NCBI GenBank assembly: GCA_964511375.1
Contig: CAZEEW010000006.1
Span: 279-64,278 of the forward strand
Length of the DNA stretch: 64,000 bases
Direction: 5' to 3'
Source: an uncultured Gammaproteobacteria bacterium
GTDB lineage: Bacteria; Patescibacteriota; Patescibacteriia; Magasanikbacterales; GWA2-37-8
Position numbers and translations under genes: made by a program. A model generated the notes under the pieces. It was not told the origin of the DNA, made no database searches, and saw nothing but the letters and a program-made list of their open reading frames with translations. The first letter of the stretch is position 1, and every line of letters starts with the position of its first letter. Shown piece by piece: positions 781 through 60,535 of this stretch.

Positions 781-3700
781 TTAAAGTCGAAAATCACAAA
801 TTTCTTTAAAATCACAGTAGGCACAGACTTCTTTACTTGGTTTTGGTTCAAAATTATTAGTTCGTATGCTTTCGATCGTTTCCGATATTTTAGTTTTGAC
901 CTTATCTAAATCTTCTGGTTTACCAAGGAAACTTTGTACAGAATTGTCATCGAGATAATAGTAACGCAACTCCCCTACCTCACCCTCGTTTCGAAGTTCT
1001 AGTACACTCTCAGATGCAATTTGGTAGATTAAAAGCTGCTCTTTATCTTCAAAGGTTAATTTTTCTTTTGGTTTGCCGGTTTTGTAGTCAGTTAAAATTA
1101 ACTTACCATCAATTCCGCGATCCAGACGATCGATCTGACCTTTGATTATAGCGCCTCCTAGTTTGAACCGAAAACCAGATTCCAATCCTATGGGTACAGT
1201 CCAGCCGCTTGTTTCACCCAGCCGATAAAACTCTCTTAATATCTCCTCACCTTTTTCATAATACTCTTTCTTCTGTTTAGCCGAATGATACCAATCATCT
1301 TGCCAAGAGGCATAGTAAATATTTAGCAGTTCATCTAGAGCCGGTTTTTTTACCGTGTTTGACGTTATTTCGTTAATTTTTGGCTCGGCAAATAGCGAAT
1401 TTTGTTTCGTACTATTTAATTCTACGATCCGTTCATAAAACTTCTGCAAGGTTAGGTGCATTGTTCTGCCAAAGCTAAACACTCCTTTGCCAAAGGTGGG
1501 TATCTGTAGAACGAACTGAAAACGGTATTGGTAAGGGCATTTGTTATACACTTGCAATTGAGAAAAAGAAAAGCTGTCAGGAACTGGGTAAAAGCCTTGA
1601 TTTTTTGGTTTTTCTGTATCTTGAAATTTTTCTAATAAGTTAGTATAAGCTTTTGGTTCGTCGTGTAATAGCAAACCCGATGTTTCATTTAGTTCTTTAA
1701 GAAAACGAGAAATCTTCTTTTCACGAACACCACCATAGTTTTTAGCGGCAGTTAGGTATAATCCTTTTTTAGCGCGAGTTATGGCTACGTAAAATAGTCG
1801 GCGTTCCTCTTGTAAATGATGATCGCCTGTTGGCAAGGCACTTTCTCGTACTAACTCAACTGGCAATTCTATTGGTTCACCACGGTGGTTGGTAGGAAAT
1901 CTCTGGTCAACTAAGTTAGGTACGAAAACATAAGGGAACTCCAAGCCCTTCGCACCATGGATGGTCATCAGTTTCACGGCGTCTTCACCAGTATTAAGAT
2001 CATCGGTCACCTCGTTGTCTTCACCATATTCCAGAATAAATTCATAATAGTTTAGCCAGGCGTGAACTGTTGACTCAATATTTTCTTCGCTAAACTTTTC
2101 TAAGCGAGAAAATAGCGATTGAAGATGCAAGATATCTCGGTAATGTTCTTCGGCCTGGTTAGATAATAGCTGCAGGTAACCTGATCCGTTCCAAAAGGTG
2201 TACAAGACTTTTGCTGCGGATTCGGTTTTAGATAGTTTTGCACACTTGTCCATTGTTTCCAAGAGTTTGGTCAGTACTTCTCTACCCTCGCTGCTTATGT
2301 CAACATTGCCTTTTTCAGCATCACGAACTATTTCGTACAAGGATGCGGCGCGCTTTCGAGCTTCTTGTAATAGCTTAGACCAGTCTTCGTGGTTAACCTT
2401 GTAAACCGGAGAGTTTAAAACACGGAATAAAGCACTAGATTCGTGGTAGTTGTCGATTAGGCGTAAAAACGCCATGCTATCTAACACCACTTTTTGGCGA
2501 AATAGTCCAGCGGTTGAAAGGAATTCATAGGGAATGTGTTCTTCTAAGAAAACTGGTATAAACTGCTCGGCTTGTTTGTTTGCTCGGCAAAGTATGGCGA
2601 AGTCTTTCCAGTTAAGTTTAAATTCCGTTTTTAATTCCTTAATTTTTTCTATTACTAACCGGGCTTCATCCCCGGCGTTTTGACCATACAGAAATTCCAC
2701 TTCCCCACTCCAAGGCTGCTTGGCTTCCAGCCGTTTATTTATATTTAATTTCGTCTCTAAACGATCTGGATTATTAAGTTGGATAAAATTATGAGCGAAA
2801 TCCAAAATCTTTTGTCCAGAGCGATAGTTCTCGCTCAAAACAATTTCTTTTGCTTTTGGAAAATCATCTTTAAATTGTAAAATATTGGACACTGAAGCAC
2901 CGCGGAATTTATAAATACTTTGATCGTCGTCACCAACTACAGTTAAGAAAGGCTTAGTAATATTTTTTACCAGCAACTTAACCAAAGCATATTGTGCCCA
3001 GTTTGTATCTTGGAACTCATCGACTAGAATGAATTTAAATTTCTCCTGGTATTCTTTTAAAATTTTAGGACGGTCGGAAAAAAGTTTAACGGTATATTGG
3101 ATTAAATCTGCAAAATCTAGTGCACCGTGATCTAACAACAATTGGTTGTATACATGGTAAGCGTTGGCAATTTCTTCAATGCGCTTTGGTTCCAATACCA
3201 AATCCTCTTCTCCACTTTCTTCTACTTTTTTTGTTTTCTTGGCTTTAGTCTTCTTTTCCGTGTAAGTAAGATTATCTGTATTTAATTTTACGCTTTCGGC
3301 GTATTTCAGATAATCTTCTGGGGAAATTAATTCATCCTTGCAACGAGAAAAATGTTTAAGTAAAGCATGAATAAACTTGGTTGGATTACCAAGTGGGCGG
3401 TAATAATCTAAATTGAATTTATCTAAATTTTGACGGACTAAAAGCCAGGTTTCGACTTCGTTTAAAACCTTAAAGTTGTTCGGTAAACCCATGTCTAAAC
3501 CACAGGCTTCAAGAATAGTCTGAGCTAAAGCGTGGAAAGTAGAAACCGTAAGGTCATAGGTGCCAAATTGAACAAGGTTACCTATTCTTTCCTCCATTTC
3601 AGCAGTGGCTTTTTCAGTGAAAGTTACAGCTAATATTTCCTCAGGTTTCGCAATCTTTTCTCGGATTAGATATGCGATCTTTTCACTTAAAACTGTCGTT

Positions 3701-3816
3701 TTACCTGTACCCGCGCCTGCCACAATCAAAAGCGGTCCGTCGTTGTATTTGACAGCTTTCTCCTGGGCTTGGTTTAAACCCTTAGCTTCGAGTTTTAACT
3801 TAGTGAGTTCGGGCAT
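781..3816 (-). CDS. UvrD/PcrA-type superfamily 1 helicase fused to a C-terminal PD-(D/E)XK Cas4/AddB-type nuclease domain
   Basis: N-terminal Walker A AGAGTGKT (UvrD motif I), helicase motifs through mid-protein; C-terminus CAYCDFKEICDF is the Cys cluster typical of RecB-family/Cas4 iron-sulfur nucleases. Confidence 0.75.
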   Translation of the reverse strand: MPELTKLKLEAKGLNQAQEKAVKYNDGPLLIVAGAGTGKTTVLSEKIAYLIREKIAKPEEILAVTFTEKATAEMEERIGNLVQFGTYDLTVSTFHALAQTILEACGLDMGLPNNFKVLNEVETWLLVRQNLDKFNLDYYRPLGNPTKFIHALLKHFSRCKDELISPEDYLKYAESVKLNTDNLTYTEKKTKAKKTKKVEESGEEDLVLEPKRIEEIANAYHVYNQLLLDHGALDFADLIQYTVKLFSDRPKILKEYQEKFKFILVDEFQDTNWAQYALVKLLVKNITKPFLTVVGDDDQSIYKFRGASVSNILQFKDDFPKAKEIVLSENYRSGQKILDFAHNFIQLNNPDRLETKLNINKRLEAKQPWSGEVEFLYGQNAGDEARLVIEKIKELKTEFKLNWKDFAILCRANKQAEQFIPVFLEEHIPYEFLSTAGLFRQKVVLDSMAFLRLIDNYHESSALFRVLNSPVYKVNHEDWSKLLQEARKRAASLYEIVRDAEKGNVDISSEGREVLTKLLETMDKCAKLSKTESAAKVLYTFWNGSGYLQLLSNQAEEHYRDILHLQSLFSRLEKFSEENIESTVHAWLNYYEFILEYGEDNEVTDDLNTGEDAVKLMTIHGAKGLEFPYVFVPNLVDQRFPTNHRGEPIELPVELVRESALPTGDHHLQEERRLFYVAITRAKKGLYLTAAKNYGGVREKKISRFLKELNETSGLLLHDEPKAYTNLLEKFQDTEKPKNQGFYPVPDSFSFSQLQVYNKCPYQYRFQFVLQIPTFGKGVFSFGRTMHLTLQKFYERIVELNSTKQNSLFAEPKINEITSNTVKKPALDELLNIYYASWQDDWYHSAKQKKEYYEKGEEILREFYRLGETSGWTVPIGLESGFRFKLGGAIIKGQIDRLDRGIDGKLILTDYKTGKPKEKLTFEDKEQLLIYQIASESVLELRNEGEVGELRYYYLDDNSVQSFLGKPEDLDKVKTKISETIESIRTNNFEPKPSKEVCAYCDFKEICDFRL

Positions 3817-4369: not shown

Positions 4370-5116
4370 TCATTCTTTCCTAGGAATAAGTATCTTATGC
4401 TTTTCTTGCCCAGATGCCACGATCAAAGCGTGAAATTCCTGGTAAAATGTAGTTAAATTAGGTGTTCTAATTATTTGTTTGTTTTTAGTAAAAAATTCTC
4501 TAGTTAAACGTTTTTCAAAATACTCTTTGTATTCATCATATTTCTTACACTCTATCCCGTATATTTTACACATTCGTCTGGTATATTCATCTATCATGAA
4601 AACTGGGAGGTTTAAGGCGTAGAGCATTATTGAATCGGCAGTTTCATGTCCTATTCCCCAAAGAGATAACAGTTCTTCGCGCAAATCGGGAATGGAATTA
4701 ACCTTTAGACTATTGACACTACCCTGGTAGTGATCTGTTAAATGTTTGGCTAATGTTTTGACTTTTCTGGCTTTTTGTCGAAAATATCCAGCTGGGTATA
4801 TCAGTTTCTCTAGCTCCTTATCCTCGAGCTTTAAAATTCTTTGCGGTGTTAAGGCCTTTGCCTGGTACAAGTTAATGATTGCTTTAGCGACATTAGTCCA
4901 GGCAGCGCTTTGTGCTAAGATGGCGCCAATTGCTATTTCAAAGTACGGATCGCGGTAATTACTTTTGTGTTTAGCTAGAGACTTGTAACTTCCGCCATAG
5001 GTTAAACCATGACGAAGTGATTTACTTTCTTTCTCTGTTTCTTTGATAAATATTGGCCACCAGCCTTGAGGAGCGTATTTATCGCGTAAAGTGGTGTAAA
5101 TTTTAAGTAGGTTCAT
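4370..5116 (-). CDS. HhH-GPD superfamily DNA glycosylase (endonuclease III-like)
   Basis: Helix-hairpin-helix motif LWGIGHETADSIMLYAL followed by the catalytic Asp region; size and layout of Nth/MagIII-like base-excision enzymes. Confidence 0.6.
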   Translation of the reverse strand: MNLLKIYTTLRDKYAPQGWWPIFIKETEKESKSLRHGLTYGGSYKSLAKHKSNYRDPYFEIAIGAILAQSAAWTNVAKAIINLYQAKALTPQRILKLEDKELEKLIYPAGYFRQKARKVKTLAKHLTDHYQGSVNSLKVNSIPDLREELLSLWGIGHETADSIMLYALNLPVFMIDEYTRRMCKIYGIECKKYDEYKEYFEKRLTREFFTKNKQIIRTPNLTTFYQEFHALIVASGQEKHKILIPRKE

Positions 5117-5173
5117 ATGAACGATAAAAATATACGCCCACTTCGTTCTAAAGGAGCTAAACTAACTATTTCT

Positions 5174-5302
5174 CCTATTTTTCATCACAACCACATCCGC
5201 AGCCAGAACCACAATCGCAGCAATGATAGCAAACGCTAGCATTGCAGGCGCAACTCTCTTCCTCCTTTTCCAAAGGCATTTGGCACTTTGTGCAGCTGTC
5301 CA
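5174..5302 (-). CDS. 42-aa cysteine-rich peptide MDSCTKCQMPLEKEEESCACNASVCYHCCDCGSGCGCGCDEK (metallothionein-like; 11 Cys)
   Basis: Hand translation of the minus strand; ATG to TAG uninterrupted; below the 60-aa cutoff of the ORF track; CxC/CC/CGC spacing as in metal-thiolate cluster peptides. Confidence 0.4.
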
Positions 5303-5390
5303 TAGAGACGGGTATTAACGAGGCTTATCGCCTTCTTACCGGTGTATTTTACCAGATCTGACCATATCACGGCAATGGGGAGAAGGCGGC

Positions 5391-5419
5391 TTGTTTTTAG
5401 CGGTAAGGAGGGGTATAAT
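5391..5419 (+). promoter_or_regulatory. putative sigma70 promoter TTGTTT-17-TATAAT upstream of the 5528 plus-strand gene; overlaps a 16-codon uORF (MVRKESGSLIILCLLS) with AAGGAGG RBS
   Basis: Perfect -10 hexamer with 17-nt spacer; the AAGGAGG/ATG arrangement could instead be a leader peptide. Confidence 0.3.
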
Positions 5420-5527
5420 GGTTAGAAAAGAGTCGGGCTCCTTGATTATTTTATGTTTGTTATCGTAAATTCATGTTCTCTGTTGTTTAAAGACCTACTC
5501 TTTCGTTATTAAGTTTATAAAAACTCT

Positions 5528-5968
5528 ATGTTTTTTGATATTATAACAACAGTAATATTTTACCTTATTTTAATGTTTCTAAGCGTAAATTTGTTAGGTT
5601 TATTTGTGAGAGGTTTTGTTGTTAATCCAGAATTAGAGAAATTGGAAAGCGAAACTAAATGTAACCCTCTTAAAAAAGAAATTAAGAAACTTAAACGTTC
5701 CGATCAGCTTATAAATTTCACCGCATTTTTAAGTATCTTTGGTTATCTATATAGCACATTCCACTTTTGGAATTTTGGCGTTACTGCCATTGCTATAATA
5801 TTAATGCTAATAAGACTTCCAGATTTACTTTGGGAGATAAAAACACGACAGGAATATAGTCGAATCACTTCGACCTTGTCTATACCAAGGAATCTATTAA
5901 GTTACATCACTTCTTTTTTTACCTTTTTATTAATCCCAGTATTATATTTTTTCTTGTATCGTTTCTAG
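5528..5968 (+). CDS. hypothetical membrane protein
   Basis: ORF track; 4 hydrophobic helices; no recognised motif. Confidence 0.4.
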   Translation: MFFDIITTVIFYLILMFLSVNLLGLFVRGFVVNPELEKLESETKCNPLKKEIKKLKRSDQLINFTAFLSIFGYLYSTFHFWNFGVTAIAIILMLIRLPDLLWEIKTRQEYSRITSTLSIPRNLLSYITSFFTFLLIPVLYFFLYRF

Positions 5969-6054
5969 TTCGTGAATCTAAGCTATCTGGGTAATTTAAT
6001 ACTTTGCCTGCCGAACAATTGTGATGATTCCTTGATTAAAATTATTGCCATTTT

Positions 6055-6483
6055 ATGACAACACAAATATTAAAGGAAGTAATAGATAAAGTTTTGTCCT
6101 CAAGACGTGTTATGCCTGCCCATTTCACTACTTTTAATAATCGCAAACAGACATTTTTAGTCGATTTTGAGCAAATGGATCCTGATGATGAGTATGAAAT
6201 GGCAAGTCAGGCTTGGAATAATTTGCCCGGAATATTTTCCGAAAGAGACTCTCATATTTGTCTAAAAATTGGCGAGGATATGATGTTGGCCTCTTTTATT
6301 GCCACCAAACTTGGTCATGTGGAACTAGTTGATGATTTGAAGAAACAGCTTACATTTATTAACATCGGTCGTTTATCCTTTTATTTACAGCCTGTGATAA
6401 AGAAAATTGTTAATAATAAAAAAATGATTGATTATTTTAATTACTGTCTACGTTTTGGAATTGAGAGAGCAAGTATAAAATAA
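6055..6483 (+). CDS. hypothetical protein
   Basis: ORF track; no recognised motif. Confidence 0.35.
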   Translation: MTTQILKEVIDKVLSSRRVMPAHFTTFNNRKQTFLVDFEQMDPDDEYEMASQAWNNLPGIFSERDSHICLKIGEDMMLASFIATKLGHVELVDDLKKQLTFINIGRLSFYLQPVIKKIVNNKKMIDYFNYCLRFGIERASIK

Positions 6484-6628: not shown

Positions 6629-7066
6629 TTAAGTGGGATTTTGTTTTATATTCTTGTACTTCTTCCCTATCTTCAAACGGTTCATTTCACGGTCGATCTT
6701 GGCTTGCAATCTGGCGAAGTCGACATCTTGAACATTTTTAATATTCTTCATTTGTTCTTCGGCGGTTTTTCTAGCTTTTTCAGCACGTTCAAGGTCGATT
6801 TCCTCCACTCGTTCCGCATGGTCAGCTAAGACCACTAGTTCATTGTTGCCTCTTACTTCCAAGAAACCACCAGCAATGGCAATAACATGTTCGCCATTAG
6901 TATCTTTGATCTTTAATTCACCGGCTTGGATAATGGAAACCAAAGGAATGTGGTTTGGTAGAACCGTAATCTGACCGGTGGTAGTCGGAATAGTTACTTG
7001 GTCTATTTCATTGTTTTCGTATACAACTCGCTCCGGAGTGGCAATACGAAATTTTAATTTAGCCAT
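6629..7066 (-). CDS. atpC: F0F1 ATP synthase epsilon subunit
   Basis: N-terminal beta-sandwich signature MAKLKFRIATPERVVYE..., position directly downstream of atpD. Confidence 0.85.
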   Translation of the reverse strand: MAKLKFRIATPERVVYENNEIDQVTIPTTTGQITVLPNHIPLVSIIQAGELKIKDTNGEHVIAIAGGFLEVRGNNELVVLADHAERVEEIDLERAEKARKTAEEQMKNIKNVQDVDFARLQAKIDREMNRLKIGKKYKNIKQNPT

Positions 7067-9456: not shown

Positions 9457-9744
9457 TTAATCTAAATAACCCCACGCAAAAGGATTTGTATCACTGATAC
9501 TTTTAATTTTACCACCTTTTATCAATGCCGGGATGACCTGACCATCACCGTATTTTCTACAAAGTTCTTCGACTGCATCTCCGATACTGTACAACACGTG
9601 TCCCCTCTCTCTGTTATCTGGATTAGGTATTCTTTTGTCAAGATTGCTTTGAACAAGTTTATCAAATTCATTCAAAAATTCACTTTCTGGCGGAAGCTCG
9701 TGAGTATAGTTAGGAATAGGTCTATCACCAGTTTTTATTGTCAT
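9457..9744 (-). CDS. hypothetical 95-aa protein inserted between atpA and atpG
   Basis: ORF track; tight spacing inside the atp operon on the same strand; no recognised motif. Confidence 0.45.
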   Translation of the reverse strand: MTIKTGDRPIPNYTHELPPESEFLNEFDKLVQSNLDKRIPNPDNRERGHVLYSIGDAVEELCRKYGDGQVIPALIKGGKIKSISDTNPFAWGYLD

Positions 9745-60110: not shown

Positions 60111-60407
60111 TGGCTCCGGGGGCGGGATTCGAACCCGCGACCAATTGATTACACTTACCTACTTGTTTCCAAATAGTGTGGACTATATCATCACCCCGAC
60201 GATGTCGGGGGCAAGGCGCTTCGACCAATTACCTGGTCTACTCCTTTCGGATAGTCTCTGAACCTTCCTGCTTTCGCAGGCTTGGCTGCTGATTACCATT
60301 GCCTTTCGACTTTAGGCTTCCAGCAATTCACCTTGTTTTCTGCCTTAATTACTTAAGGTAGCTGCGTTAAACCACAGTCAACTGCGCTACCGCTGCGCTA
60401 CCCCGGA
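60111..60407 (-). tRNA. tRNA-Asn(GUU) gene interrupted by a group I intron in the anticodon loop (exons 60374..60407 and 60111..60151)
   Basis: Perfect 7-bp acceptor stem (UCCGGGG/CCCCGGA) pairs across 297 nt; D-arm GCGC-AGCGGUA-GCGC; T-arm GCGGG-UUCGAAU-CCCGC; spliced loop CUGUUAA gives anticodon GUU with U1-A72 and G73 as in E. coli tRNA-Asn; CCA encoded. Confidence 0.65.
60152..60373 (-). ncRNA. group I self-splicing intron (222 nt) inserted between nucleotides 35 and 36 of tRNA-Asn
   Basis: Core elements AAUGGUAAUCAGCAGCCAAGCC and GGUUCAGAGACUA match conserved P3/P4/P6 and P7/J8-7 sequences of group I introns (Tetrahymena GUUCACAGACUA; Azoarcus AGAGACUA, GCCAAGC); 5' exon ends in U with GCAG internal guide pairing; intron ends in G. 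Confidence 0.65.
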
Positions 60408-60535
60408 ATAAATTGTAACGAGAAAATTATACAATATTGTTTTAAATTCGTCAATGGGGATTTTTGCCGATGGCTATCGCTGTTTATTGTGGTATGCATT
60501 TGCTTTGAATGCTAGGGGGCAAGGGCGAATCGGTC

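Follow-up and report, generated by a model that had tools for sequence, protein, structure and literature searches.

The minus strand of the DNA analysed here, a stretch of 64,000 nucleotides that we call the window, carries at 5175..5303 a gene for a Cys-rich mini-protein, MDSCTKCQMPLEKEEESCACNASVCYHCCDCGSGCGCGCDEK, of which 11 of the 42 residues are Cys (26%, the proportion that an earlier note on this DNA had given). The gene is conserved as an ordinary protein-coding gene in a family of small proteins that were found, among the members with a named source, only in Patescibacteria. From its size and cysteine arrangement, and from the genes next to some of its relatives, we read the product as a metallothionein-like metal-buffering protein, with a probability of roughly 0.55.

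The gene was delimited from the ORF list and the sequence, together with its homologues, the codon pattern and an AlphaFold model. The frame opens with the ATG at 5303-5301 and closes with the TAG at 5177-5175, the stop codon being counted within 5175..5303. The earlier note had translated this ORF exactly, but its coordinates (5174-5302) were one base too low, and a translation of exactly those positions runs in a wrong frame. Upstream of the ATG, the open frame holds no further in-frame start, and the preceding segment reads ASLIPVS. The neighbours are those already described: a HhH-GPD DNA-glycosylase gene on the minus strand (4370..5116; Pfam PF00730, E 3.3e-14), which starts 58 nt beyond the stop codon of the mini-protein gene, and two hypothetical genes on the plus strand (5528..5968, for a predicted membrane protein, and 6055..6483), neither with a Pfam or NCBIfam match. 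It had also been said that the ORF is unannotated and easily missed. Indeed, gene callers missed the gene: the identical public contig, Logan SRR5011273_36990, has no call at its position, and no record of the exact peptide was found. The lack of a Shine-Dalgarno (SD) sequence was likewise rightly described as common in the host, since an SD-like motif lies 5-22 nt before the start in only 4 of the 52 genes of the whole window, where leaders are A/T-rich. The missing SD is no argument against translation of the mini-protein, because the host almost never uses one.

Comparison with relatives, which the earlier note had proposed as a check on the frame, showed that the frame and its cysteines are kept and that synonymous changes are in excess. 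In the DNA of ten independent family loci, differences are most frequent at the third codon position (0.59, against 0.33 at the first and 0.27 at the second), pS is 0.89 and pN 0.29, and TGC and TGT swap freely at the invariant Cys positions. The mini-protein of the window shares 45-62% identity with the copies in four syntenic genomes, where AtpC shares 43-63% and AtpD 84-88%; for the HhH-GPD protein the single pair compared (window and L151) gave 54%. Because pS is far above pN, Cys codons alternate between TGC and TGT, and the identity is similar to that of AtpC and HhH-GPD, the gene is an ordinary protein-coding one, with purifying selection that centres on the cysteines. A chance ORF, or a non-coding element such as a structured RNA in a GC-rich intergenic stretch, would have had in its favour the inverted repeats upstream of the ORF and the composition of the region, since 5175-5450 has 44-50% GC against 21-30% in the neighbouring intergenic DNA. 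However, it does not explain a frame and cysteines conserved with a synonymous-substitution pattern over about 50 clusters, and the upstream DNA is unconserved in other loci. Moreover, Rfam gave nothing at this locus at either gathering or permissive thresholds, and folding of the window at 5160-5480 (the ORF and its upstream DNA) gave z = -0.19, that is, no significant fold. This explanation is refuted by the conservation data, and we leave it practically no weight.

The family was not easy to find. A word-indexed homologue search with the single peptide gave no match, and an exhaustive phmmer scan was needed, which retrieved 12 full-length matches (42-65 aa, E 4e-9 to 8e-4) from 1.84 billion representative proteins. 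Two profile searches then gave 36 and 52 clusters, with family lengths of 42-113 aa, about 50 clusters in all. Wherever a source is named, the cluster comes from Patescibacteria (Paceibacterota, Parcubacteria, Buchananbacteria, Daviesbacteria and Berkelbacteria); the titles all read "hypothetical protein", and Pfam domains are absent throughout. When genome contigs were scanned with a degenerate DNA pattern of Cys codons, the pattern proved too loose: it hit mostly TGC/TGT repeats, and only L012, L076 and L126 were true members. No relatives were found in the viral contigs scanned, and literature searches returned no account of such a family in Patescibacteria. To judge from these searches, the family appears to be undescribed and, among members with a named source, seen so far only in Patescibacteria.

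The members share the pattern C-x(1-2)-C-x-M-P, followed by 6-10 mostly acidic residues and C-x-C-(N/E)-x3-C-x-(H)-C-C-x-C-x3-C-x-C-x-C. In an alignment of 38 sequences, nine cysteines never vary (C7, C18, C20, C28, C29, C31, C35, C37 and C39), and C4, P10 and C25 are conserved in at least 90%. Apart from cysteines, M9, P10, Y26/H27 and G38 are conserved positions. In the window protein there is a single Tyr (Y26) and a single His (H27); the family commonly has Y or F at 26 and H at 27, where Y, F, R, N, Q or C may stand instead. Metallothioneins, for comparison, contain aromatic residues and His rarely or not at all. Some homologues have an N-terminal CxC in place of CxxC. Some members (P0056, P0059, P0061 and P0006) carry a second Cys-rich C-terminal module, e.g. 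GGCCSCGSCDKGCG, after a poly-acidic linker, and P0057 is an example of a long poly-Asp/Glu tail.

We inspected about 33 distinct loci of the family. In five genomes (the window, L010/L011, L012, L151 and L152) the mini-protein gene lies shortly downstream of atpC, the gene for ATP synthase epsilon, which is the last gene of the atp operon and serves as the upstream syntenic anchor (6629..7066, minus strand, from the Pfam annotation of the identical contig). The downstream anchor is a gene for a UvrD / PD-(D/E)XK helicase-nuclease (781..3816, minus strand, from Pfam), and in L010, L151 and L152 a homologue of it follows the mini-protein gene at a distance of a few kb. The order in L151 is as in the window, with atpC, the mini-protein gene, the HhH-GPD gene and, farther on, the helicase gene. 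In the window, the plus-strand pair at 5528-6483 separates atpC from the mini-protein gene; it is absent from this place in L010, L151 and L152, and the two opposite-strand genes appear to have been inserted there in the window genome. Other loci have heterogeneous housekeeping neighbours (Mur ligase, GAPDH, MnmA, ComEC, BipA, GNAT, NUDIX and RNase J). When the neighbour proteins of the roughly 33 loci were clustered, nothing recurred except the atp/helicase synteny and generic families, and the HhH-GPD protein as a query on genome contigs retrieved no related loci. As a separate observation, L012 (CAZUFD010000003.1) is labelled 'uncultured Gammaproteobacteria bacterium', while its AtpD is 86% identical to that of the window and it has the same atp-to-mini-protein synteny; this bin label is probably wrong. 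Another locus, L150, has two paralogous mini-protein genes (536-715 and 2841-3014) on a single metagenome contig, about 2.3 kb apart, on either side of a BipA/TypA GTPase gene.

With regard to expression, a promoter-like site (TTGCCG-18 nt-TAAAAT with a TG extension, TGGTAAAAT), which is a consensus scan match, lies on the minus strand at 5346..5375, about 43 nt upstream of the ATG. TGGTAAAAT or TGGTATAAT also occurs upstream in the syntenic L010 and L151. Of 32 distinct family loci, 14 have an extended -10 (TGnTAnnAT) in the 80 nt before the gene, whereas random 80-nt stretches drawn from these loci contain one in 4.3% of cases. L151 has a terminator after atpC and then the extended -10 TGGTATAAT, with none between the mini-protein and glycosylase genes. 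A terminator-like site was not found in the window at 4900-5800, and there the mini-protein and HhH-GPD genes are probably co-transcribed. Heterogeneous neighbours, the enriched extended -10 and a terminator downstream of the mini-protein gene in L133 together suggest that across loci the gene is usually a free-standing, self-promoted unit. In one subfamily (L137, L140, L142, L143 and L133) the motif (A)AAGGTC recurs between the putative -10 and the ATG, close after the former and about 25-30 nt before the latter; it may be a half-site for a regulator, or it may reflect no more than common ancestry. The host genome is low in GC (40%), and the DNA at 5304-5450 has about 47% GC. Inverted repeats are seen in this upstream DNA, in which 5329-5341 could pair with 5381-5388 or alternatively with 5401-5411. 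The roughly 150 nt upstream of the gene yielded neither homologues nor an ORF.

The earlier note had proposed a metallothionein-like peptide, and this proposal stands in part. Its size, cysteine content and motifs hold, since the protein falls within the usual limits for metallothioneins (below 10 kDa, about 15-30% Cys, with CxC, CC and CxxC) with 42 aa, 26% Cys and CxxC, CxC, CC-x-C and CxCxC, and CsoR-family genes accompany the gene in two of the roughly 33 loci. On the other side, it matches no known metallothionein family, and neither a metal regulator nor a metal transporter lies near the window gene. With eleven thiolates in 36 residues and the motifs CxxC, CxC, CC-x-C and CxCxC, we infer that metal coordination is the sole economical explanation of the pattern of Cys conservation. 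Metallothioneins typically grow in a modular way by extra Cys-rich tails, and we count the tails of some members and the CxC/CxxC variation towards the metallothionein-like reading. Profile searches placed the protein in no family: at E up to 1 the window protein hit nothing in Pfam, and across the 38 members only the sub-threshold Metallothio_5 (PF02067, E ~0.1) appeared, in 5 of them; NCBIfam gave no family for the 13 members scanned; PHROGs and PADLOC gave no match; and the PDB chain sequences gave nothing except a LIM protein at E 0.72. Since every profile membership test failed, the protein belongs to no known metallothionein sequence family.

In the metallothionein-like reading, the ORF would be translated into a cytoplasmic protein of about 4.4 kDa, whose conserved thiolates (CxxC, CxC, C-x2-CC-x-C and CxCxC) would wrap a small polynuclear metal-thiolate centre. 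By analogy, this centre may hold about 3-4 Zn(II) or several Cu(I), and the protein would buffer or sequester thiophilic metal ions in the cytoplasm in the fashion of metallothioneins. In the window its own sigma-70-like promoter would drive the gene, probably with the downstream HhH-GPD gene, and in some lineages the gene is placed beside, and may be under, a Cu(I)-type CsoR repressor.

The strongest hint as to function is the genomic link to metals, which comes mainly from L126 and L004, the two loci with an adjacent CsoR-family gene. The csoR of L126 (PF02583, E 5e-26; in NCBIfam it matches the copper sensor RicR best) shares its strand with the mini-protein gene and stops 42 nt short of the ATG of the latter; this csoR is preceded by a TTGACA-17-TATAAT promoter and an inverted repeat, CACCCCCCATAGGGGGGTA, of the C-tract/G-tract form that we take to be usual for CsoR operators. 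The mini-protein gene is followed by one for a glutaredoxin-like CPHC membrane protein and one for a CPIC membrane protein, without any terminator between. The region 6320-7836 of L126 thus runs from the promoter and the CsoR-type box through csoR and the mini-protein gene to the genes for the membrane-anchored CPHC protein and the CPIC protein, the last of no known family; it is apparently a copper-stress operon in a Paceibacterota-like genome. In L004, the CsoR gene is divergently oriented and is found upstream of the mini-protein gene at a distance of about 720 nt. Both CsoR proteins have the C...H-x3-C ligand set, and in characterised CsoR members the Cys...His-x3-Cys set marks Cu(I) sensors. 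If a genome of about 1 Mb is estimated to have one csoR, about 0.07 such adjacencies would be expected by chance in 33 loci, and two were observed. As weaker hints, the mini-protein gene lies directly downstream of an ABC-3 (Zn/Mn-type) permease gene in L009, and in L006 a rubrerythrin gene follows it directly and a Zip transporter is 4.7 kb away. In the other 31 of the roughly 33 loci, the window included, the neighbourhood is free of metal regulators, and regulators of the SmtB/ArsR type were seen beside none of the family loci. Within the window, tblastn detected no CsoR homologue, an ACCCC-N(1-9)-GGGGT box does not occur in the whole 64 kb, and neither an HMA-domain protein nor a P-type ATPase was found.

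The predicted fold brings in the most serious competitor of metal buffering. AlphaFold2, with a 37-sequence alignment, gave a confident model (pLDDT 88.6, pTM 0.60) that is compact and nearly devoid of regular secondary structure, which is how a metal-organised mini-protein should look. Foldseek against the PDB returned only insignificant matches (E 1-9, TM 0.27-0.47) and retrieved no metallothionein structure; the top matches were all two-zinc fingers, namely the Slp4 N-terminal finger, FYVE, LIM, RING and PHD. The fixed Cys positions and the confidently predicted fold would suit a structural zinc module no less than a metal buffer. It is therefore possible, though somewhat unlikely, that the protein is a structural multi-zinc mini-domain, a cross-brace-like finger with extra cysteines that serves as a protein- or nucleic-acid-binding module. 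The conservation of M9, P10, Y26/H27 and G38 besides the cysteines, the housekeeping contexts and the stable place after the atp operon would suit such a module, and the spacing C-x2-C-x(9-13)-C-x-C-x4-C-x2-C presumably resembles the first six consensus ligands of RING/PHD, which is a lead. However, the fold matches that suggest it are themselves insignificant and no zinc-finger Pfam family matches. Two Zn sites need only eight ligands where the protein has 11 Cys, H27 is replaceable, and some members have additional Cys-rich tails; the CsoR linkage, moreover, points to a role in metal stress. A bolder idea, which we regard as less probable still, is a new structural class, in which a protein of about 40 residues in Patescibacteria would hold at least three metals on 11 Cys in a cross-brace-like scaffold and would be no bulk buffer; it might act as a Cu(I)/Zn(II) chaperone or sensor that replaces CopZ-type proteins where the genome is so reduced, or as a metal-dependent partner of the HhH-GPD glycosylase.

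Some neighbours would also suit a redox-active thiol protein or a small Fe-S cluster protein in oxidative-stress defence, such as the rubrerythrin gene directly after the mini-protein gene in L006, the glutaredoxin-like CPHC membrane protein in the L126 operon and a CDGSH Fe-S protein nearby in L142. Each of these is found in one locus only, however, and the family has neither a ferredoxin-type CxxCxxCxxxCP motif nor a match to an Fe-S Pfam family. We also count its CC and CxCxC motifs against this reading, since such motifs typically mark metal-thiolate clusters and not Fe-S sites, and the reading seems to us quite improbable. The earlier note had offered as its own alternative a RiPP precursor (ranthipeptide or SCIFF-like), in which a radical-SAM enzyme would cross-link the cysteines. 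A small Cys-rich peptide with an acidic N-terminal half has indeed such a look, and in one locus (L141) a radical-SAM/SPASM protein is encoded 1.2 kb downstream. But no SCIFF precursor model or other NCBIfam model matches, and the two halves of the peptide both keep their cysteines, so that it is not divided into a conserved leader and a variable core. In line with the note, the Pfam annotation of the identical contig shows no radical-SAM gene within some 5 kb of the ORF in the window, and the radical-SAM gene adjoining the L152 copy encodes RlmN, a housekeeping enzyme (TIGR00048, E 9e-83). Because no maturase recurs next to the mini-protein gene in the roughly 33 loci, nor any protease or exporter, this alternative is unsupported and we hold it to be very improbable.

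Among known systems, a metallothionein-like protein of this kind would by analogy have its closest functional precedent in MymT. The Cu metallothionein gene mymT of Mycobacterium tuberculosis belongs to the regulon of RicR, a CsoR paralogue (PMC3944814). Similarly, the mini-protein gene of L126 follows a csoR whose best NCBIfam match is RicR, behind a CsoR-type box. Both are small (about 50 aa), Cys-rich bacterial proteins of the cytoplasm with a narrow lineage. On the other hand, no sequence relationship was detected and the mini-protein has no NCBIfam match, its Cys pattern is different with more cysteines (11), and most of its loci, including the window, have no CsoR linkage. SmtA/BmtA (PF02069) builds a Zn4Cys9His2 cluster around a zinc-finger-like fold, the knuckle being part of a larger metal-thiolate cluster. 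The mini-protein likewise starts with a CxxCG knuckle and has a confident predicted fold with a weak resemblance to zinc fingers; but it matches neither PF02069 nor any PDB chain sequence, its family has no conserved His ligands, and its loci are not adjoined by an SmtB/ArsR-type regulator. Taken together, it may be most like a bacterial metallothionein, resembling MymT in regulation and SmtA in its finger-like knuckle and cluster.

Eukaryotic metallothioneins (the mammalian alpha-domain and Drosophila Mtn, PF02067) also have CxC, CC and CxxC, about 26% Cys and about 40 aa. The four-metal cluster of the mammalian alpha-domain, M4Cys11, has eleven Cys ligands, the same count as in the mini-protein. 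However, no homology to the mini-protein was detected and the taxonomic range is another one. PF02067 is the sole metallothionein model that gave any signal for the family, and this signal probably reflects composition. RING, PHD, FYVE and LIM fingers, which are eukaryotic domain families, are the best structural matches of the model, though insignificant (E at least 1, TM at most 0.47) and without a Pfam match for the mini-protein; unlike them, it has CxC rather than CxxC as its last pair and three surplus cysteines. SCIFF/ranthipeptide precursors (TIGR03973; maturase TIGR03974) are alike in having about 45 aa with many cysteines in the C-terminal half, but their model does not match, and a cognate maturase was found neither in the window nor recurrently at the homologous loci.

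To our knowledge, experimentally established bacterial metallothioneins are few, namely the SmtA/BmtA family and MymT, and metal homeostasis in bacteria of the candidate phyla radiation is essentially unstudied, because these organisms are uncultured and their genomes tiny. A new metallothionein-like family, if true, would overturn nothing. Nevertheless, a conserved mini-protein with 11 Cys and without homology to known families is a candidate for a new metal-binding fold, and its 42 residues are within reach of synthesis. If the CsoR link is true, it would open a first way into the study of copper handling in the candidate phyla radiation. The case is also a concrete example of gene callers dropping conserved small genes.

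Finally, two other features of the window may be mentioned. Within the ATP synthase operon, between atpA and atpG, at 9457-9744 on the minus strand, there is an ORF of 95 aa with no Pfam match, which is called on the identical public contig. A tRNA gene at 60118-60417 on the minus strand is interrupted by a group I intron (Rfam RF00028, 82.8 bits, 60159-60383). ARAGORN found no tRNA in the intact window but called one after in-silico removal of about 225 nt, and the anticodon of this split tRNA depends on the exact splice sites.
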